DNA from: an uncultured Lachnospiraceae bacterium
Lineage (GTDB): Bacteria > Bacillota > Clostridia > Lachnospirales > Lachnospiraceae
NCBI GenBank assembly: GCA_910588815.1
Contig: CAJUQY010000001.1
Coordinates: forward strand, 60,016 to 124,015
Length of the DNA stretch: 64,000 bases
Reading direction: 5' to 3'
The translations under genes and the position numbers were made by a program. How positions within the stretch are numbered: position 1 is the stretch's first letter; every line of letters begins with the position of its first letter. Shown here in pieces: positions 16,125 to 31,719 of the stretch. The notes below the pieces were generated by a model. It did no database searches and was not told where the DNA came from. It worked only from the letters and a program-made list of their open reading frames with translations.

Positions 16125-17807
16125 ATGGCGAGGACAGTAGGAATAGGAATACAGGATTTTGGGAAAATCATCCGAAACAATTGTTTTTATGTGGATAAGA
16201 CCGCATTCATTAAGGAATGGTGGGAAAACCAGGACGACGTAACCTTGATTACCCGTCCCAGGCGTTTTGGCAAGACGCTGGCCATGAGTATGCTGGACCA
16301 TTTCTTTTCGGTGGAATATGCAGATAAAGGCGCCTTATTTGAAGGACTCAATATATGGAAAGAAGAGAAGTACCGCAGTCTCCAGGGCAGCTATCCAGTA
16401 ATCATTTTAAGCTTTGCAGATGTAAAGGAAACATCCTTCGGAAATGCAAGGAATAAAATCTGCCGTATCATCAAAAGTGTGTATGATAAATTTTCAGCCA
16501 TACAGGATAAGGAGCTAAAACAAAAAAAACTTCCGGGTATTTTCAGTGAGATATCCCCCGCGATGAGTGATTCCGTAGCTTCCTATTCCTTAAAAGCCTT
16601 ATCGGAATTCCTTTCAAATTATTATGGAAAGAAAGTTATCATTTTATTGGATGAATATGATACTCCCATGCAGGAAGCTTATGTGCATGGATATTGGGAT
16701 GAAATGGCGGCATTTATCCGAAACCTGTTTAATTCAACTTTTAAGACGAACCCATATATGGAGAGGGCGGTCATGACAGGTGTTACACGAATAAGTAAAG
16801 AGTCCATTTTCTCCGACTTAAACCATCTGGAGGTAGTCACCTCTACCTCATGCAAGTATGAGGCTTCTTTTGGCTTTACGGAAATAGAAGTGTTTGCTGC
16901 CATGGATGAATTCGGACTTACGCAAAAGCAGGAAGTCCGTGCCTGGTACGATGGTTTTACCTTTGGAAATACACATGATATTTACAATCCATGGTCTATC
17001 GTCAACTATCTTGACAAACAGCGTTTTGCCGCTTACTGGGCAAACACCAGCTCCAACAGTCTCGTGGGAAAACTGATTCAGGAGGGGGTTCCGGAGATCA
17101 AAATTGTCATGGAAGATTTGCTCCAGGGAAAATCTTTTCATGCGTCATTTGATGAACAGATTGTATTCAGTCAGCTGGATCATAATCTCCATGCTATCTG
17201 GAGCTTGCTCCTGGCCTGCGGTTATCTGAAAGTGGAGGCTTATACTGTAGATGGGAATTATGGTGAATGTGATTATACACTGTCTTTAACGAATAAGGAA
17301 GTGTGGTTGATGTTCCGGCGTATGATAGACGGCTGGTTTGCTGAATATACGCCTGCCTATAACGCATTCATCAAGGCATTGCTGCTGGACGACAAAAAGG
17401 CTATGAATGTCTATATGAATCAGACTGCATTGGCTACTTTCAGCTCTTTTGATGCCGGCAACAATCCGTCTGAAACGACAGAACCAGAACGCTTTTACCA
17501 CGGCTTTGTATTGGGATTAATGGTAGATTTAGCGGACAGATACCGCATCACGTCCAACAGAGAAAGTGGTTTTGGGCGATATGACGTGATGCTGGAGCCT
17601 CTTAGGGATGGCGATGCGGCTTTTGTGTTGGAATTCAAGGTACATGACTCGGAGGATGAGGAGACGCTGGCGGATACCGTGGCAGCGGCGCTTCGACAGA
17701 TAGAGGAGAAAGCCTATGATACGGAATTGGCAGTGCGTGGAATCCCCAGGGAGCGGATTCGGCATTATGGGTTTGCTTTTGCGGGGAAGACAGTGTTGAT
17801 AGGATGA
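16125..17807 (+). CDS. AAA-ATPase-like protein with C-terminal PD-(D/E)XK nuclease-like domain
   Basis: 'FYVDKTAFIKEWW...TLITRPRRFGKTLAMSML' is the P-loop of the predicted AAA-ATPase family. The C-terminal 'GFGRYDVMLEP...AFVLEFKV' is a D...ExK signature. GC is lower than the flanks. Confidence 0.75.
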   Translation: MARTVGIGIQDFGKIIRNNCFYVDKTAFIKEWWENQDDVTLITRPRRFGKTLAMSMLDHFFSVEYADKGALFEGLNIWKEEKYRSLQGSYPVIILSFADVKETSFGNARNKICRIIKSVYDKFSAIQDKELKQKKLPGIFSEISPAMSDSVASYSLKALSEFLSNYYGKKVIILLDEYDTPMQEAYVHGYWDEMAAFIRNLFNSTFKTNPYMERAVMTGVTRISKESIFSDLNHLEVVTSTSCKYEASFGFTEIEVFAAMDEFGLTQKQEVRAWYDGFTFGNTHDIYNPWSIVNYLDKQRFAAYWANTSSNSLVGKLIQEGVPEIKIVMEDLLQGKSFHASFDEQIVFSQLDHNLHAIWSLLLACGYLKVEAYTVDGNYGECDYTLSLTNKEVWLMFRRMIDGWFAEYTPAYNAFIKALLLDDKKAMNVYMNQTALATFSSFDAGNNPSETTEPERFYHGFVLGLMVDLADRYRITSNRESGFGRYDVMLEPLRDGDAAFVLEFKVHDSEDEETLADTVAAALRQIEEKAYDTELAVRGIPRERIRHYGFAFAGKTVLIG

Positions 17808-20795: not shown

Positions 20796-22262
20796 ATGAA
20801 GAAAAAGGAGAGCTTGATGGAAAGATTGAACGGCGGCGAGGTAAAGGAAGCGCTTCAGAGACAAATCGCAGAGGGGTATCTGTCCGGAAGACCGCGGTCA
20901 TCCTGCTGTCCTGGAATCTTCTGGAATATACGAAGCTGTGCATTAAGAGTATTCGGGAGACTGTGCCGGAAGACGTCAGGCAGATCATTGTGGTGGATAA
21001 TGCCTCTGAGGACGGAAGCGTTGAATGGCTGAGGGGGCAGAAGGATATTTTACTGATTGAAAATCAGGAGAACCGGGGCTTTCCGGCAGGCTGCAATCAG
21101 GGAATTGCCGCGGCCGATGCAGATGCCGATATATTTCTCCTGAACAACGACACGATACTGCCGGAGAATGCATTATTCTGGCTGCGGATGGGATTATATG
21201 AATCAGAGAAAAACGGTGCGGTGGGCAGTGTATCCAATTGTGTCGGCAATCATCAGCAGGCAGGGGGGATCAGGGGGGGACGGAGACCTGCCTGATTTGT
21301 TTGCCCATGCGGAGAAGACCAATGTGCCGATGAAGTATCCCTATGAAAAGAAGTTGTATCTGGTGGGATTTGCCCTTCTGATTAAACGGCCGGTTCTGGA
21401 ACAGGTGGGAATGCTGGACGAACGGTTTTCACCGGGGAACTTTGAGGACAATGATTATGGCCTGCGCGTTCTGGAGGCGGGTTTTTATAATATTTTGTGT
21501 AAAAACAGTTTTGTTATCCATTTCGGGAGCCGGTCCTTCGGCAAGAACACGGAGAGCTTCCAAGAGGCTATAGAGTCAAACATGGAGAGGCTGAATGAAA
21601 AATGGGGATTTCAGATTAAATATTACCTGCATCCGCGGGAGATTCTTGTAGAACAGATTGCTGAGCCTTTGGAAAAAGAAATCCGGCTTCTGGATGTGGG
21701 CTGCGGCTGCGGAGCCTTTATGGGGCATATGCAGGGAAAATACCCCCATGCTTCCGTATACGGCATCGAGCTTTTTTCGAAGGCTGCCGGATTTGCAGAG
21801 ACAATGGGCGAAGTGATTTGCGGGGACGTGGAGCATATGGAGTTCCCCTGGCCGGAAGGATTTTTTGATTATATGGTTTTCGGCGACGTTTTAGAACATC
21901 TGGACGATCCTCAGGCTGTGCTGACGCGCCTGGCCAGATGCTTAAAGACAGGAGGGCATATCATTGTCAGCATGCCGAATGTCAAGCATTATTCGGTGAT
22001 GCTCCCACTGCTTTTGGAGGATAAATTCACTTATGAAGACGCGGGGATTTTGGACAGAACCCACAGGAAGCTGTATACGGGAAGAGAGATTGCGGGGCTG
22101 CTTACAAGAAGCGGCTACCGTGTCGAGACATTGGCGGGGATTACCAGAGGAGAAACCGACGAACAGAGAAAGAAGCTGAGTGGACTTTTGTCAGGCTTGG
22201 GGCTGCCGGATATAGAGGCTTTTTTTATCTATCAGTATCTGGCGAAGGCTGTGAAGGAATAG
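20796..22262 (+). pseudogene. GT2 glycosyltransferase - class I SAM methyltransferase fusion, disrupted by two opposite-sign frameshifts
   Basis: The start ('MKKKESLMERLNGG...') and the C-terminal part ('LVGFALLIKRPV...DNDYGLR' plus MT motif I 'LLDVGCGCGAF') are in frame 0. The GT2 core 'RKTAVILLSWN...VVDNASEDGS...NRGFPAGCNQG...LLNNDT' is in frame 2. The second switch lies at the G6/G7 runs (21263-21279). Confidence 0.65.
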
Positions 22263-25874: not shown

Positions 25875-26414
25875 ATGTTCTCAAAAGTTGACAGGTGGAT
25901 TTTGACGAAGCTTTCTTTAAAAATAGAAAATACAGCGGGAACTAAGCATAAGCGTTCATATCTATCTGATTTGGTCTTTTTGATTGTTTATACGGCCATA
26001 TCTTTATATAATGCTTTGGCGTTGATGTTTTCTCAACTGATATTGACTGATGGGAAAGGTACTTCTCCTTCTCTTCTTGTGATCTGTTTGAATGTTATTG
26101 TTATCGTCAGATTAAATATTGACATATACATAAAAAAGAAAGAAAATGTGAATGCTACCTTAGATAGGTTGCCGGCTGTGAAGTTCGTCCAGGAGATTGA
26201 TATAAAAACATGGAGATACCGATTGGAAATTCTTTGCGTAGGATATGGTATCATTTTGATGGTTATCGTATACTATTTTTGCTATGGGGAGGTAGTTAGC
26301 GGCTCTTTGGCGATAGCTGGGATAGTTGCGGTTATCGAAACATTTATCAACAGTTTTCTGGATAATCTGGCCGCCAGATATGAAGCGGATCCAGAAGTTT
26401 TTATGAAAGAATAG
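25875..26414 (+). CDS. Hypothetical polytopic membrane protein (about 4 predicted TM helices)
   Basis: 179-aa ORF with SD ggagg. Hydrophobic stretches: 'LVFLIVYTAISLYNALALMF', 'LLVICLNVIVIV', 'ILCVGYGIILMVIVYYFCY' and 'LAIAGIVAVIETFI'. Low GC. Confidence 0.6.
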   Translation: MFSKVDRWILTKLSLKIENTAGTKHKRSYLSDLVFLIVYTAISLYNALALMFSQLILTDGKGTSPSLLVICLNVIVIVRLNIDIYIKKKENVNATLDRLPAVKFVQEIDIKTWRYRLEILCVGYGIILMVIVYYFCYGEVVSGSLAIAGIVAVIETFINSFLDNLAARYEADPEVFMKE

Positions 26415-26425
26415 GGGGGATAAAT

Positions 26426-26734
26426 ATGCGGGAGCAGACATTGATGTCGTTGGTGTTATTGTTTTTTTTGATACTGTTAGTGGCGAACGGGCTTGTATCA
26501 AAAAAACAGAAGAGGCTTTTGGATATCAGATTGCGGCAGCACAATGAAGGGATACTGTTTGCTGAGATGCCCTTTGATATTGGAGGAGAATGCTATCAAG
26601 CCCCTGTCTTTTTTAAAATGCATAATACAGGAAAAGAGTTATGTGAAGATATAGGAGAGATAGAGTATATTGCATACAGTGAAGTGTCTGAATATTGGAT
26701 GAAGAAGGAAAAGAAAAATGGATCAATTGATTGA
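26426..26734 (+). CDS. Hypothetical small protein with N-terminal membrane anchor
   Basis: 102-aa ORF with 'LMSLVLLFFLILLVANGLV' followed by a ~70-aa soluble part. It starts 11 nt after the previous gene. Confidence 0.5.
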   Translation: MREQTLMSLVLLFFLILLVANGLVSKKQKRLLDIRLRQHNEGILFAEMPFDIGGECYQAPVFFKMHNTGKELCEDIGEIEYIAYSEVSEYWMKKEKKNGSID

Positions 26735-27275
26735 CAAAATATGGGATATTGTAAAAATTGGTGCGGGAAATATATGTGCTAAAGACACAGATATCTGTTT
26801 TGGAGAATCCAAAAAAGAAACGTTTAAAAACTGGGTTGAAAGGCTCTATGATAATCTTCTGGAGTATATGGAAGATGCAGAAAAGCCATTGGATCGGCAT
26901 AAAATGGCGGCTATTTTTATAGTCGCAGTTATTAAAGCCGAGGTGCTGGAGGGGGAAAGAAGAGAAGCTGTTTTTGTGGGCAATTACATACTGGCAGCAG
27001 AAGTGGGCTTGTCTTATATGCGTAAGGTGCTTAATGAAAAACTGGAAGAAAAGCTGGGGGTGGAAACAAAAAACATAGAAAGGTTTTATTTCCCCAAAGC
27101 GAATTCTTGCCCAACCGATTATTTCAGGATTTTTTATCGAAATCTTTATTTTGCTGATACCAATGAGGAATGGGGGCTGAACCCGCTTGATATTGCGGAA
27201 CGATTGTTTTTACTGGAATATTTGACATTAGAACATAATGATATTGAACCATCTATCTTAAAAGAATATGAATGA
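26718..27275 (+). CDS. Hypothetical soluble helical protein
   Basis: 185-aa ORF overlapping the previous gene by 17 nt. I recognise no motif. Confidence 0.55.
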   Translation: MDQLIDKIWDIVKIGAGNICAKDTDICFGESKKETFKNWVERLYDNLLEYMEDAEKPLDRHKMAAIFIVAVIKAEVLEGERREAVFVGNYILAAEVGLSYMRKVLNEKLEEKLGVETKNIERFYFPKANSCPTDYFRIFYRNLYFADTNEEWGLNPLDIAERLFLLEYLTLEHNDIEPSILKEYE

Positions 27276-27388
27276 AAGCTTAAAGCCAAGGTTTTTGTGG
27301 AGAACAGATATGGCGAATAATTGTAGCTGTCAAAAGGGCAAGGCTTGGCGAGCGAAAGGAGGAATGATGGATGGAGGTGACGCAGGAA

Positions 27389-27535
27389 ATGACAGAAAAA
27401 GAAATGCATAGCGTAAAAATGTCCACACTTTATGAGTTGAGGTTGATCTTTACTCAAGGAGAAAAGAAGGAGTATACCACGGAAGAAATTGTGGAACTTC
27501 TGGATAAGATAGCAACAGCTAAAGATCAGAAATGA
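27389..27535 (+). CDS. Possible small ORF (48 aa) not in the supplied ORF track
   Basis: The ATG at 27389 is preceded by ggaggtg 9 nt upstream. The product is 'MTEKEMHSVKMSTLYELRLIFTQGEKKEYTTEEIVELLDKIATAKDQK'. It ends 25 nt before the 29-bp hairpin. Confidence 0.3.
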   Translation: MTEKEMHSVKMSTLYELRLIFTQGEKKEYTTEEIVELLDKIATAKDQK

Positions 27536-27560: not shown

Positions 27561-27628
27561 GTGCGCATTTGTAAAAACGGCTCCTTTTCGATAAGAATTC
27601 GTATATAATAATTCTTATCGAAAAGGAG
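27561..27628. terminator. 29-bp perfect inverted repeat (bidirectional terminator-like) dividing the cassette
   Basis: gtaaaaacggctccttttcgataagaatt (27561-27589) and aattcttatcgaaaaggagccgtttttac (27600-27628) are exact reverse complements. The loop is 10 nt and A/T runs flank both sides. Confidence 0.7.
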
Positions 27629-27744
27629 CCGTTTTTACATTAGCAGCCAGGACAGATCGTTTGGCTAAATATTACTTGCCCTGAAATGAATTTTTTTGAA
27701 AATACCCCTTTTGTTTCAGGCAGATCTGTCGGACTGACGACAAT

Positions 27745-28269
27745 GTGACAACCCCATGGATAGATCGGCAATACAGAAACTTAATTGCTTATCAATGTAA
27801 AATATATACGCATGTGACCAAAAATTTAAGCCCGGCTGCTCAGGAAGTGGCGAAGATATGTGAAGAATTTTATGTTTTAAATTCTTATGATGAGCAAAGC
27901 TCGACCGATTCGGAAAATCAACTGCGCAATGAAGCAGTCAGGAATGAGCACAAGGAATGTTGTCGGAGGATCCTGATTCGTCTGGCGCAATTCCGCATGG
28001 AAATTGAAAATGTGAATACCATTCTGCGCCACCATCTGTACAGAGCTGAATATATGACACGGGCCCATGTTTCCGCATACTGGAGCGGCGTTCTTCAAAT
28101 GAATGACAGCGGGGCATTACCTTCCATGCCTTGGTTTGACGTCACGGATGCCGCGGGGGAACAGGAGTATGAAGGATATTTAAACAGCATAAGAAGGAAC
28201 TTTGCCGAAATTTTAGAAAACGAAGGGGGAGAGGCCGATGAAACTGGCGAACAACAAAAAGAAAAGTGA
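27745..28269 (+). CDS. Hypothetical acidic helical protein; start uncertain
   Basis: 174-aa ORF from a GTG with no SD. The GTG is embedded in ATGTGA at the end of a 20-codon upstream ORF (27686-27748). I recognise no motif. Confidence 0.45.
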   Translation: MTTPWIDRQYRNLIAYQCKIYTHVTKNLSPAAQEVAKICEEFYVLNSYDEQSSTDSENQLRNEAVRNEHKECCRRILIRLAQFRMEIENVNTILRHHLYRAEYMTRAHVSAYWSGVLQMNDSGALPSMPWFDVTDAAGEQEYEGYLNSIRRNFAEILENEGGEADETGEQQKEK

Positions 28270-28663
28270 CATGCCATATAAAATGGAACCGTTGGTTCCG
28301 ATACCCTCCTATGCACCGCATGATACACTGACTGCGAAGGGATACGAAATTCCTTCCGTGCTGATTAAATTTGAAGAAAATTTTGAATTACGATGCCGGG
28401 AAATCATTAAGAATGGGAAGCTGGATCAGTATAACAAGGGTTATATGGACGGGCTGATCTGCTGCATAGAGAAACAGGCATTAGCCGAATTGGAGGTACA
28501 GAGGGCAGCGCACAATCAGCGGATGGCCGATCTGAGCCGTCTTAGAGCCGGCGATCGCATAAAGGCAGAAGAAAAGTTAAGGCAAGTAGAAAAAGAAATT
28601 CAGACAGTAAAAGAGGAGCTTGAAAAAATAGAAGCTGTTTATGGAACCGTGAAGGGGGAATGA
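28238..28663 (+). CDS. Hypothetical coiled-coil protein
   Basis: 141-aa ORF with an alternative start at 28271 just after the upstream stop. The C-terminal 'RIKAEEKLRQVEKEIQTVKEELEKIEAVYG' is heptad-like. Confidence 0.5.
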   Translation: MKLANNKKKSDMPYKMEPLVPIPSYAPHDTLTAKGYEIPSVLIKFEENFELRCREIIKNGKLDQYNKGYMDGLICCIEKQALAELEVQRAAHNQRMADLSRLRAGDRIKAEEKLRQVEKEIQTVKEELEKIEAVYGTVKGE

Positions 28664-28666
28664 CAT

Positions 28667-29527
28667 ATGAGGAAAAAGGCGGTTATCGGTGTTTATGCCA
28701 TGAAACCAGAGACATATTCACTGTCAAAAGAAAACGAAGAAGAGCTGCAAAAAAAAGAAACTTCTCTTTGGCGGCGCCCTGCTATGCTGATAGTATGCAC
28801 TCTTGGAGCTACTGCACTGGACGGGACGGTCTTGTTTAACCTTTTGGACAAGGCGATGTTCCAGAGTGAACACATGGGATGGATTATGGGCTTGGGAATT
28901 GCTGTTATCCTGAATCTTGCGCCGCTTTTCGCTGCCTATTATATTTATCAGGCATTGTATAAGCTGAAACGGGGGGCGGCTTTGTGTGCGGGGCTTACTA
29001 TTTTGTCCTTTTTTATTCTGTTTGGCTCTACATGTGCCATTCGGGCGTCTTATGCGGATACTTATAACGCAGGTGGAGCCAAGCAGATGGATGAAGCGGA
29101 TATGGCGTATTTGGAAATTCAGATTGAAGAAAATCAGATTGAAGAAAAAACAGATCAAGGGAAAAAATGGACATTGACGCTCTTTCTGTCAGTGGAGCCC
29201 TTGGCAACTTCATTATTGAATTTTGTTATGGCTTATATCTCAGAGGATAAGTTCCAAAAAGAAAGAGAACATTTGCGCTTACGCCGTTTAGAATTAGAGG
29301 AGGCCAAAAGTGATCTGCTTGCCGTCGCCGCTTCTCTTGCTGAACCGGAGAGCTATACTCAGCAGCAATTGTCCATAGATGAGAGGCATTTGGAGGCCTG
29401 CCAAAAAGAAATTTATGAACGCTGCCGCTGTCTGGAAGCCAGAGCGAGACAATATTTAGCTGAATATTTGCAGGATCCGTCTGGGGCCAGTCGTGTTTTG
29501 GCGGAACTTGAGGTTCGGGATTCATAA
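28667..29527 (+). CDS. Hypothetical 4-TM membrane protein with acidic external loop and C-terminal coiled coil
   Basis: 286-aa ORF with SD aggggga. TM candidates: 'PAMLIVCTLGATALDGTVLFNLL', 'WIMGLGIAVILNLAPLFAAYYIY', 'ALCAGLTILSFFILFGSTCAI' and 'WTLTLFLSVEPLATSLLNFVMAYI' (with an embedded Glu-Pro). The tail is 'EREHLRLRRLELEEAKSDLL...'. Confidence 0.6.
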   Translation: MRKKAVIGVYAMKPETYSLSKENEEELQKKETSLWRRPAMLIVCTLGATALDGTVLFNLLDKAMFQSEHMGWIMGLGIAVILNLAPLFAAYYIYQALYKLKRGAALCAGLTILSFFILFGSTCAIRASYADTYNAGGAKQMDEADMAYLEIQIEENQIEEKTDQGKKWTLTLFLSVEPLATSLLNFVMAYISEDKFQKEREHLRLRRLELEEAKSDLLAVAASLAEPESYTQQQLSIDERHLEACQKEIYERCRCLEARARQYLAEYLQDPSGASRVLAELEVRDS

Positions 29528-29587
29528 GAAACTGATTAAATAGGTGGCTGGATAAGCGGAACGGGTGTATTGAAAGGAGAACCACTT

Positions 29588-30694
29588 ATGAAAAGAATAA
29601 AGAGTTTTTTCCTTGCGTTGACAATATTGATATCTGCTTTTTCTTTTACAGGATGCGGCAGTGAGGCCAGCAAACCACTTGCGCTGGCCGTGGTTGTGGG
29701 GGCACATTCCAATTTCAACCAGATCCCGAAAAACCTGAAACAGATTGATGAATTGTTTTATAAGGTGGCTGAGACTTATAGAAAATCCATTGCAGAAGAG
29801 TATGTAGAACAGATGGGCTATGTTTTGTTTAGTGAGAAAGGGCAGGCACAGAAAAGAGAAGTTGATACATTGAGAGCCATACGTCTGGCGGCGAATTCCA
29901 TACAGGATAAGGATAATTCCGAAAGACTCATTTTGGTCATAGACAGTGGCTTGTCAACGGTGGGAGAGCTGAATTTTGTGGAAGAGGGATTTCAAATTTC
30001 TGCAGAAAATATTGTCGCCGATTTGGAGAAGAAAAAGGCTATTCCGGATTTGAACGGATTATCTGTGGAATGGCTCTACTGTGCCGAGACGGCTTTGCCC
30101 CAACCGAGACTTTCCGAGTTGCAAAAGTTTGTATTGCAGGAAGTATGGGAGAAGATTTTGGAAGCCGGGGATGCCGAAAATGTGAAATTCCATTCCCAGC
30201 CGCCGTCGTCTTTCCCCCATGAGGGACTGCCGCCTGTGAGCATTGTAGAAAGAGAGGCTGATGAAGAGGAGGGAGGCCTCTACGAAAAGAAACATATTTT
30301 AGAAAACCGGATTTTTTTATTCAAGGGAGATCTCGCCGAGTTTGAGGAAGAACAGGATTCTTATGAGACCCTGGTTGTTTTGGCAGAGGAGCTTCAGTCC
30401 AATCCGGAAAGCCATGTCTATGTGATAGGCTGTACGGCCGGAAGTCCTCGAAAAGCTTTCTGTAAACAGTTGAGTGAGGATCGCATACATGCGGTTACAG
30501 ATGTGTTGAGTCAATTGGGAGTGTCTGAGTCTCAGATGCTTTCCTATGGCCTGTCCTCTGACAATCCGTGGTATGTGAATGATTTAGATCAAAACGGAAA
30601 GCAGATAGAGGAAACTGCCGCACCCAACCGCAGGGTCATGGTTATAGATGTGGACAGCGGGGAAGCTGAAAAGCTGCTAGGGTATTTGCCATAA
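29588..30694 (+). CDS. Lipoprotein with C-terminal OmpA-like peptidoglycan-binding domain
   Basis: ATG at 29588 (SD aaaggaga). Signal peptide plus lipobox 'MKRIKSFFLALTILISAFSFTGC'. The C-terminal 'VYVIGCTAGS...LSEDRIHAVTDVLSQLGV...APNRRVMVID' follows the OmpA_C pattern (LSxxRAxxV ... NRRV). The N-terminal alpha/beta part is unassigned. Confidence 0.7.
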   Translation: MKRIKSFFLALTILISAFSFTGCGSEASKPLALAVVVGAHSNFNQIPKNLKQIDELFYKVAETYRKSIAEEYVEQMGYVLFSEKGQAQKREVDTLRAIRLAANSIQDKDNSERLILVIDSGLSTVGELNFVEEGFQISAENIVADLEKKKAIPDLNGLSVEWLYCAETALPQPRLSELQKFVLQEVWEKILEAGDAENVKFHSQPPSSFPHEGLPPVSIVEREADEEEGGLYEKKHILENRIFLFKGDLAEFEEEQDSYETLVVLAEELQSNPESHVYVIGCTAGSPRKAFCKQLSEDRIHAVTDVLSQLGVSESQMLSYGLSSDNPWYVNDLDQNGKQIEETAAPNRRVMVIDVDSGEAEKLLGYLP

Positions 30695-30731: not shown

Positions 30732-30759
30732 TTATCCTTTCCGCCCCCCCTGCCGATAA
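30732..30759 (+). promoter_or_regulatory. Sigma-28 (SigD/FliA)-type flagellin promoter
   Basis: An exact GCCGATAA -10 lies at 30752-30759, 136 nt upstream of the flagellin ATG. The upstream element is only TTAT/TATC at the expected distance. The spacer contains a C7 run (30744-30750). Confidence 0.6.
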
Positions 30760-30894: not shown

Positions 30895-31719
30895 ATGCAG
30901 ATTCAACATAATATTCAGGCTATCAACTCCAGCAGAAACTTAGGTATCAACAACAAAGCTCTGGCAAAGAACTTAGAGAAGCTGTCCTCCGGTTACAGAG
31001 TAAACCGTGCAGGCGATGACGCTGCCGGCCTTGCTATTTCCGAGCAGATGAGAAGCCAGATCAACGGTCTCAATCAGGCGGCTACCAACGCGCAGGATGC
31101 TATCGGTCTTATTCAGACGGCTGAAGGCGCTTTGACGGAAGTTCACTCCATGCTTCAGCGTATGGTTACCCTGTCTACTCAGGCTGCCAACGCTACGATG
31201 AACACCACTGCATTGGGAAATATCCAGACTGAGTATGATGCTCTGTTGGACGAAATTGACCGTATTACCAATTATACGGATTTTAATGGCACAAAGCCGC
31301 TGGGATCAGAGGCACCTGGCCAGATGACGTTCCAGATTGGTCCGTCTGGAGATGAAGTTATCAATGTTGCTGGTAAAGATTTGTCTACTGCCGGAGATGC
31401 TACTATGGTAGCAATCAGAGGTAACATTGATTCACGAGATGATGCCAATACCATGATTGACAACATTAATACGGCAATCAATACAGTTTCTACGTATCGT
31501 GCATCTCTCGGTGCTGCTCAGAACCGTCTGGAGCATACCTACAACAGCTTGAAGGTAACTTCCGAGAACATCCAGGATGCTGAGAGCCGTATCCGCGATA
31601 CCAATATGCCTGATGAGATTACGTCCTTCACGAAGAACAACATCCTTCTGCAGGCTTCTCAGTCTATGCTGTCTCAGGCCAACGCAGTACCTCAGAGCGT
31701 GCTGAGCATGCTGGGTTAA
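30895..31719 (+). CDS. fliC: Flagellin (short, 274 aa, D0/D1 only)
   Basis: 'MQIQHNIQAINSSRNLGINNKALAKNLEKLSSGYRVNRAGDDAAGLAISEQMRSQINGLNQA' and the C-terminal 'LGAAQNRLEHTYNSL...NILLQASQSMLSQANAVPQSVLSML' are canonical flagellin termini. Confidence 0.95.
   Translation: MQIQHNIQAINSSRNLGINNKALAKNLEKLSSGYRVNRAGDDAAGLAISEQMRSQINGLNQAATNAQDAIGLIQTAEGALTEVHSMLQRMVTLSTQAANATMNTTALGNIQTEYDALLDEIDRITNYTDFNGTKPLGSEAPGQMTFQIGPSGDEVINVAGKDLSTAGDATMVAIRGNIDSRDDANTMIDNINTAINTVSTYRASLGAAQNRLEHTYNSLKVTSENIQDAESRIRDTNMPDEITSFTKNNILLQASQSMLSQANAVPQSVLSMLG

Follow-up and report, generated by a model that had tools for sequence, protein, structure and literature searches.

To our knowledge, very few systems sense foreign DNA at the level of the cell envelope, and almost nothing comparable has been described for Gram-positive bacteria. 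Cam1, Csx23 and CorA are membrane-associated ancillary effectors in CRISPR-Cas systems of type III. The 5:2 motors combine an Asp with a ring of Ser/Thr residues, and the N-terminal transmembrane (TM) helix of their peptidoglycan-binding subunit, which carries the critical Asp, enters a ring of A subunits (PMC11890865). Here, we analyzed a cassette of four genes, which we call A, B, C and D, in a 64,000-nucleotide stretch of DNA from an uncultured Lachnospiraceae bacterium (GenBank assembly GCA_910588815.1, contig CAJUQY010000001.1, positions 60,016 to 124,015); this whole stretch is referred to as the window. An earlier note on the same DNA had described four chained open reading frames (ORFs) and likened their products, by architecture only, to the MotAB, TolQR and ZorAB machines. 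Our comparison with other genomes showed that the four genes constitute a conserved, co-inherited cassette of novel families. Judged by its sequences, the cassette is a gene system outside the described kinds, in which only the OmpA-like domain of D falls in a known family, and literature searches found no description of an A-B-C-D gene set.

A conserved cassette of novel protein families

An exhaustive profile search defined the C family as 301 clusters at 50% identity, 158 of them with E≤1e-10; nearly all of the clusters have sequences of 260–320 amino acids (aa) that are covered end to end. This search overturned the view of C as an ultra-rare family, which was based on the four clusters found in a word-index search. 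The window was compared with another 16 independent loci (L001, L003, L006, L018 and L020–L031). Wherever the contig reaches, the genes follow one another as A-B-C-D at each of the 17 loci, even where C is only ~20% identical to the C protein of the window. The same order in the 16 other loci goes far beyond chance and bears out the suggestion of the earlier note that the four genes form one unit, which is inherited together.

The product of gene C contains four hydrophobic segments (residues 39–60, 72–92, 105–126 and 169–191), a loop at residues 127–168 with 10 Asp/Glu versus 4 Lys/Arg residues, and a helical C-terminal tail of ~95 aa. The family-wide net charge of C is +3.2 for the N-terminus, −1.0 for loop 1, +2.0 for loop 2 and −4.4 for loop 3. 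Because this family-wide charge bias fits a protein with four TM helices and both termini in the cytoplasm, it supports a topology in which the acidic loop would be placed outside, the helical tail inside and Glu177 within TM4. The prediction therefore agrees with the features that the earlier note had ascribed to C, namely four TM helices, a very acidic external loop, a Glu (in 'FLSVEPLATS') inside TM4 and a cytoplasmic coiled coil. The importance given there to the TM4 Glu was not upheld, since this residue is found in only 23 of the 74 family members that were aligned and is thus not a functional hallmark. The invariant residues are instead Asp52 and Arg126, while Pro86, Phe115, Pro178, Thr181, Ser182 and Leu264 are near-invariant, with the Pro, Thr and Ser of the TM4 motif kept in 70, 69 and 68 of the 74 members, respectively. 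Searches of Pfam, NCBIfam, PHROGs and PADLOC returned no match for C, and its profile search against PDB returned noise.

Gene B encodes a predicted cytoplasmic protein with the conserved motif D63-x-x-N66...D71...H92 and a C-terminal heptad helix. Hydrophobic residues occupy 70–78% of the a/d heptad positions in the tails of B and C, consistent with the coiled coil at the end of B that had been described before. No match to B was found in Pfam, NCBIfam, PHROGs, PADLOC or PDB. Several lineages encode B and C as one natural fusion protein of 385–426 aa, in which B precedes the N-terminus of C (P0163, P0123, P0157 and P0180; L026:10001–11272). One of them, P0163, matches the hidden Markov model (HMM) of the B family at 3e-8, and the other three have the same motif, LDxYN...N.I. 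On the basis of these fusions, we argue that B works physically on C. The product of gene A is acidic (isoelectric point of 5.1) and helical, as was noted earlier, and we infer that it is another cytoplasmic partner protein; it has no match in Pfam, NCBIfam, PHROGs or PADLOC, and the profile search against PDB gave only noise.

The product of gene D has the signal peptide and lipobox of a bacterial lipoprotein. Its N-terminus reads MKRIKSFFLALTILISAFSFTG-C, and all 19 sequences compared have the lipobox Cys23. Apart from the lipoprotein signal, D has no hydrophobic helix and no TM helix. The C-terminal region of the protein is an OmpA-like peptidoglycan-binding domain (PF00691), which scores 27.7 bits in Pfam against a cutoff of 27.2 and belongs to the YiaD type in NCBIfam (2e-11); YiaD is also the best match of the D-family profile in PDB (3.5e-12). 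In a Foldseek search, the AlphaFold2 model of D matched the C-terminal domains of Pal, OmpA, OprF and MotB with E ~1e-7 (9e-8) and a TM-score of 0.67–0.76 normalised to the target. Throughout the family, LSxxRA retains its Arg and the NRRV sequence is preserved, while the Asp of the canonical 'TD' is replaced by Ala (T-A) in all members. A lipoprotein with a C-terminus of OmpA/MotB pattern is what the earlier note had proposed for D, and the invariant Cys and the matches in Pfam, NCBIfam, PDB and Foldseek all agree with it.

The N-terminal domain of D is an alpha/beta domain of ~220 aa (the model has a mean predicted local distance difference test score, pLDDT, of 68 over the whole of D). It was left without assignment in the earlier note and still has none: no match was found in Pfam, NCBIfam, PHROGs, PADLOC or PDB sequences, Foldseek searches of PDB and BFVD with the D model returned matches to the OmpA-like domain only, and a profile of the N-terminal domain alone gave noise against PDB sequences (HSP90 at E of 0.3). 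A VWA domain, for which a check had been suggested, found no support: neither D nor its homologues match VWA, and the first strand reads GAHSN, not the DxSxS of the metal ion-dependent adhesion site. The domain occurs also in actinobacterial OmpA-family lipoproteins. Pfam scans of the homologues of A, B, the N-terminal domain of D and the partner proteins described below gave singleton noise only.

The residues conserved in C call to mind an ion-driven, stator-like machine, in which C would pass protons or Na+ by means of the intramembrane acid, D would tether the machine to the wall and the coiled coil would transmit a signal. The invariant Asp in TM1 and the near-invariant Pro, Thr and Ser residues in TM2 and TM4 recall the Asp and the Ser/Thr ring of the 5:2 motors (PMC11890865); a peptidoglycan-binding partner, a cytoplasmic helical tail and a genomic context similar to the defence islands of Zorya point in the same direction. 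The TM4 sequence VEPLATS (window 29192–29212) also resembles ISPLATV of Escherichia coli MotA (residues 220–226 in TM4, around the functionally important Pro222). This likeness, the only piece that hhalign aligned, extends over 7 residues at a probability of 0.2%, and it is thus a curiosity and not evidence of homology. Neither MotA_ExbB (PF01618) nor ZorA was matched by C in Pfam or PADLOC at E≤1, none of the 74 family members matches MotA_ExbB, and hhalign with the 74-sequence C profile yielded a probability of 0.2% for E. coli MotA and 0.5% for TolQ. The profile searches thus agree with the earlier note, which had seen no sequence similarity of C to MotA, ExbB or ZorA. Moreover, the Glu flagged in TM4 is not conserved, and the N-terminal TM helix with the critical Asp, typical of the peptidoglycan-binding (plug) subunit of the 5:2 motors, is absent from D, which has a cleavable lipoprotein signal instead. 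Because D is a lipoprotein without a TM helix, a 5:2 core with a central dimer of the motor's B subunit is impossible as built. The residues in question (Asp52, Pro86, Pro178, Thr181 and Ser182) are all on C itself, the AlphaFold2 model of which has a pLDDT of 50. We consider such a machine quite unlikely, although C, with its buried Asp and Pro/Thr/Ser helix, might conduct ions. The idea of an assembly of unassigned proteins that extends from the cytoplasm through the membrane to the wall can be retained from the earlier note, whereas its analogy to MotAB, TolQR and ZorAB fails as a statement of membership, as C is not similar to the stator subunits and D has no TM helix.

Genomic company and possible role of the cassette

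At the other loci, the neighbouring genes often overlap the cassette in one operon. P-loop ATPases that resemble TraG, VirD4 and TrwB but have no TM helices are present in nine loci (L001, L018, L020, L021, L023, L026, L027 with two copies, L028 and L029); these recurrent partners match PF02534, PF10412 and PF12696, and their genes overlap the cassette or adjoin it in L027, where the order is ATPase, ClpP, A-B-C-D, ATPase, and in L029. A ClpP-like protease is encoded beside the cassette in four loci, a ~355-aa protein with 3–4 TM helices and an HExxH motif in five, and a protein with seven TM helices recurs in L001, L021, L028 and L029. Company of the defence or mobile-element kind, as known for Zorya, is seen at other loci. 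L003 contains kinase, PP2C and VWA genes (L003:10062–17686), a set that resembles the TerY-P triad. Giant kinase-STAND and kinase-TIR-beta-propeller proteins are encoded in L018 (4125–7805 and 14276–18841), an NB-ARC protein in L026 and a WYL protein in L027. A distant cassette (L031:3770–15160) is flanked by genes for a CHAT (caspase-like) protease and prepilin-type N_methyl proteins and by a diversity-generating retroelement (bAvd and reverse transcriptase), and L025 contains TnpV and, ~8 kb from the cassette, a gene for a Mob_Pre relaxase.

Based on these observations and on the protein families described above, we tentatively propose, at somewhat less than even confidence, that the cassette is the core of an undescribed trans-envelope platform or sensor complex, belonging to an anti-foreign-DNA system of monoderm Clostridia. 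C would form the membrane centre, with its four helices, the invariant intramembrane Asp, the invariant Arg and the Pro-x-x-Thr-Ser helix. B would dock on the cytoplasmic N-terminus of C, to which it is covalently joined in some lineages, and A would add another partner on the cytoplasmic side. Outside the membrane, D would be held by its lipid anchor and would tether the assembly to peptidoglycan via its OmpA-like domain; its alpha/beta domain would probably meet the acidic external loop of C. Complete systems encode the core in one operon with a protease, either ClpP-like or a membrane protein with HExxH, and with one or two soluble TraG/VirD4-like ATPases, and they are located in mobile-element or defence islands, once in a type III-D locus beside CARF effectors. 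The most likely role would be that of a membrane/wall platform or sensor by which these cytoplasmic enzymes are positioned or switched on against foreign DNA that enters the cell. Both the physical complex of A–D and the role in defence are predictions.

The partner ATPases could also be explained by a transfer or exclusion apparatus, in which A–C would serve as a receptor in trans for coupling-protein-like ATPases without TM helices, with D as the wall anchor, and which would act in DNA export or entry exclusion. In all nine loci, the adjoining TraG/VirD4/TrwB-like ATPases have no canonical N-terminal TM domain, and the Mob_Pre and TnpV genes of L025 as well as the recurrent seven-TM protein would fit such an apparatus. 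However, no VirB4-type ATPase was found in the flanks (up to 8–10 kb on each side), the only relaxase there was the distant Mob_Pre of L025, one copy of the cassette lies inside a CRISPR-Cas locus, and tblastn searches with three family members against 72,556 plasmids gave no match. We regard this explanation as unlikely.

The copy in the CRISPR-Cas locus, which is of type III-D (L022:1–16810), is located between cas6 and CARF/Csm6-like genes. The gene order is Cas5_IIId (5e-80), a RAMP-domain protein (Pfam RAMPs, 2.1e-25), a 122-aa ORF, Cas7_IIId (2e-124), Cas6, the A-B-C-D cassette, a CARF protein (5e-46), a Csx1/Csm6-like protein (3e-34) and the HExxH protein, followed by a CRISPR array with a 31-nucleotide (nt) repeat (16477–16704). 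In L020, a CARF-PD-(D/E)xK nuclease is encoded in the operon of the cassette, and L021 contains genes for Cas1 and RT-Cas2 (RT, reverse transcriptase). These three loci would suit an ancillary membrane module in CRISPR-Cas systems of type III that answers cyclic-oligoadenylate signalling. Most loci, however, have no cas or CARF genes, a consistent linkage to cas10 was not seen, and a census of accessory genes in type III systems that has been published (PMC6546367) does not include the cassette. Such a dedicated CRISPR module appears very unlikely to us.

Several observations weigh against the proposed anti-foreign-DNA complex as well. The cassette and its recurrent partner proteins match no system model of PADLOC-DB v2, where only a generic P-loop (for one ATPase) and the WYL domain of a neighbour were detected. 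Genes of the cas or CARF type are present in only 2–4 of the 17 loci, and A–D contain neither a CARF nor a SAVED domain. The cassette has no match in plasmid, phage or IMG/VR collections; one family member was used in the tblastn search against phages, and searches for the cassette in metagenome and viral contigs likewise found nothing. The AlphaFold2 model of C, built on a 4-sequence alignment, is too poor for use. Finally, the TraG-like ATPases, Mob_Pre and TnpV could mark the backbone of an integrative and conjugative or mobilizable element that carries the cassette as cargo.

If the anti-foreign-DNA complex exists as proposed, A, B, C and the N-terminal domain of D are four undescribed families, which together form the invariant core of a system that is widespread in gut and rumen Clostridia (~300 clusters at 50% identity) and connects the wall and membrane of the cell with cytoplasmic proteases and DNA-translocase-like ATPases. 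Through its connection with type III-D CRISPR-Cas and CARF nucleases, it would be an accessory module of a new type. The idea is testable, as a cultured bacterium, Lachnospiraceae bacterium XBB2008, carries the cassette together with genes for an HExxH protein and an ATPase. A bolder form of it, drawn by analogy and in our opinion rather improbable, is that of a convergent, non-homologous Gram-positive counterpart of Zorya and MotAB: an ion-conducting C with four helices, an intramembrane Asp of its own and a Pro/Thr/Ser pathway, tethered to the wall in trans by D, would sense a breach of the envelope by phage or conjugative DNA and would switch on TraG-like translocases and proteases through B, A and the tail of C, and in some genomes it would be an arm of type III CRISPR immunity. 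The cassette would then represent a new class of immune machine anchored in the envelope.

The copy of the cassette in the window

The four ORFs were confirmed in the window (Table 1), and so was their chaining by overlaps and short gaps, which the earlier note had reported. The overlap between A and B measures 32 nt; B and C share one frame, with a gap of 3 nt (TGA and one codon between them), and C and D are separated by 60 nt. A GGGGGA/AAGGAG ribosome-binding site precedes the ATG of B, C and D by 6–8 nt in each case, that of B and of C being GAAGGGGGA. For D, the start chosen by the ORF finder (TTG 29570) was judged less likely than ATG 29588, because AAAGGAG precedes this ATG; the length given previously for the D protein is thereby supported. 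Composition, heptad periodicity and hydropathy of the proteins also match their earlier description.

Table 1. Coordinates of the features discussed in the text (window numbering)
Feature	Position	Strand	Remarks
Palindrome	27570-27639	unstranded	Two 35-nt arms, 94% complementary, no loop; repeat search
In-frame gene A remnant before GTG	27700-27744	+	No start codon; A-family HMM search
Gene A	27745-28269	+	GTG start, 174 aa as called
Gene B	28238-28663	+	141 aa
Gene C	28667-29527	+	286 aa
Asp52 codon, TM1 of C	28820-28822	+	Invariant, 74/74 family members
Arg126 codon, outer end of TM3 of C	29042-29044	+	Invariant, 74/74 family members
TM4 motif E177-P178-L-A-T181-S182 of C	29195-29212	+	74-member alignment
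Gene D	29588-30694	+	368 aa from ATG 29588
OmpA-like peptidoglycan-binding domain of D	30350-30637	+	aa ~255-350
Flagellin gene	30895-31719		Downstream of D

The copy of gene A in the window is 5'-truncated, and this is why it has no Shine-Dalgarno (SD) sequence and starts with a GTG only. The earlier note had rightly described a GTG start without SD, but missed its cause. The homologues of A are 207–268 aa long versus 174 aa in the window, and the first ~43–52 residues, found in all of them, are missing. In an hmmsearch with the A-family HMM, profile positions 1–43 were absent from the window copy; when three-frame translations were searched, the homology extended 27 nt 5' of the GTG without any start codon, with nt 27718–27744 aligned to profile positions 44–52 and a stop codon at 27697–27699. 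Because the N-terminal residues are gone and an SD sequence is lacking, gene A of the window is probably a pseudogene or poorly translated. A 20-codon ORF at 27686 (MNFFENTPFV...) was considered as a frameshifted N-terminus of A, on account of a by-eye likeness to 'MNFKFVISKVG', and was dismissed, as HMMER did not support it.

Gene D is affected too. The D protein of the window is without a ~33-aa segment that carries the conserved strand 'vSlvraDG.P', the sole such case among the 19 members aligned there. Furthermore, no homologue of the recurrent partners (the ATPase, the protease and others) was found anywhere in the 64-kb window. Since A is truncated, a core segment of D is deleted and partner genes are missing, we read the window copy as an eroded orphan, probably a decaying remnant in a hypervariable flagellin-glycosylation island. 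The earlier claim that the genes form one cassette stands, but the truncation of A, the lineage-specific deletion in D and the absence of partner genes had been overlooked. On the other hand, B and C are intact and the source lineage is clonal across samples, with 8 of 8 contigs identical over the cassette, so a loss of function of this copy is put forward only tentatively.

The window around the cassette contains a flagellar late-gene and flagellin-glycosylation island, with genes for FlgK, an SLT-domain protein, a PilZ protein, glycosyltransferases and a methyltransferase. The cassette itself is placed between flagellin-glycosylation glycosyltransferases and flagellin, directly upstream of the latter. 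This position would suit a flagellum-associated envelope module, for instance a stator accessory or a wall anchor, and OmpA-like domains do occur in MotB and MotY. However, no flagellar gene was found at the 16 other loci (in precomputed Pfam tables and scanned neighbours, those of L020–L023 and L028–L030 being scanned in part), and the content of guanine and cytosine (GC) is 0.38–0.44 across the 26–30 kb region as compared to ~0.50 on either side, a drop that reads as an insertion. A flagellar role was therefore rejected on the grounds of genomic context and is, in our view, extremely improbable; the best reading is that the flagellar context of the window cassette is incidental. The message of the window copy is a modest one, namely that flagellin-glycosylation islands gather fragments of mobile DNA.

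Several further features were observed in this region. Upstream of the cassette, the ORFs of a 'module 1' (window 25875–27535, encoding a 179-aa membrane protein and proteins of 102, 185 and 54 aa) occupy the stretch of the lowest GC (0.38). Pfam, NCBIfam, PHROGs and PADLOC returned no match for them, and none of the other loci has a homologue of them close to the cassette; contig L010 has a 123-aa call in place of the 185-aa ORF. The palindrome listed in Table 1 lies between these orphan ORFs and the truncated 5' edge of the cassette, and could be a bidirectional terminator (transcript end) or a recombination scar. Downstream, no terminator-like site was seen in the interval between D and flagellin, and the sequence GCCGATAA at 30752–30759, ~135 nt 5' of the flagellin gene, resembles a sigma-28/SigD −10 element. 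A glycosyltransferase-2/methyltransferase gene was compared among the window (20963–22262), L011 (270–1568) and L010 (2297–3596). Two ORFs, one of 110 aa and one of 321–364 aa, take its place in the window and another contig, and in GCA_022790875.1, a metagenome-assembled Lachnospiraceae genome of the source lineage, it is one 432-aa ORF; a frameshift or phase variation may account for the split. In a second low-GC patch (16–20 kb) of the glycosylation island, positions 16125–17807 encode a protein with AAA-ATPase_like and PD-(D/E)xK_9 domains, which is further evidence that this island is a mosaic.

Comparison with known systems

Like the membrane-associated type III effectors Cam1, Csx23 and CorA, the cassette holds the position of an ancillary module in the type III-D locus of L022. 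Unlike them, it comprises four components, has no CARF or SAVED sensor and is not linked to CRISPR in most of its copies. With the coupling proteins VirD4, TraG and TrwB, the resemblance lies in the partner ATPases, which match the same Pfam families (PF02534, PF10412 and PF12696); these ATPases differ from coupling proteins in that the membrane anchor at the N-terminus is missing and no VirB4 is encoded beside them, and a Mob_Pre gene was encountered once, ~8 kb from the cassette.

The similarity to ZorAB of Zorya and to MotAB comprises a polytopic protein with a cytoplasmic helical tail and an OmpA-like peptidoglycan-binding partner, Asp, Thr, Ser and Pro residues that are conserved within the membrane, the location in defence islands and the presence of cytoplasmic partner enzymes that act on nucleic acids. 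The differences are that no homology is detectable, that the Asp of the cassette resides on the polytopic C protein itself, that C has 286 aa with a short tail, that A and B are obligatory extra components and that the hosts are monoderm.

D resembles the lipoproteins Pal, YiaD and YfiB in having a lipobox Cys and a C-terminal OmpA-like domain. It differs from them in its novel alpha/beta domain of ~220 aa, in the family-wide replacement of the 'TD' Asp and in the membrane to which it is predicted to be anchored, the cytoplasmic one of a Gram-positive cell instead of an outer membrane. The two-domain organization of D is shared by an 'OmpA family protein' from Blastococcus (L007:8001–9134), a lipoprotein with 30–34% identity to D over the N-terminal domain. 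Its gene is the last one of a Tad pilus operon (Flp, TadE, Tad, RcpC, TadZ-like, TadA, TadB and TadC) and, unlike in the cassette, genes A, B and C are not present at this locus; another actinobacterial homologue of D (L009) is not encoded in a pilus-assembly operon. The occurrence of the same two-domain lipoprotein in these different settings suggests that D is a reusable, portable wall-anchor module for envelope machines.

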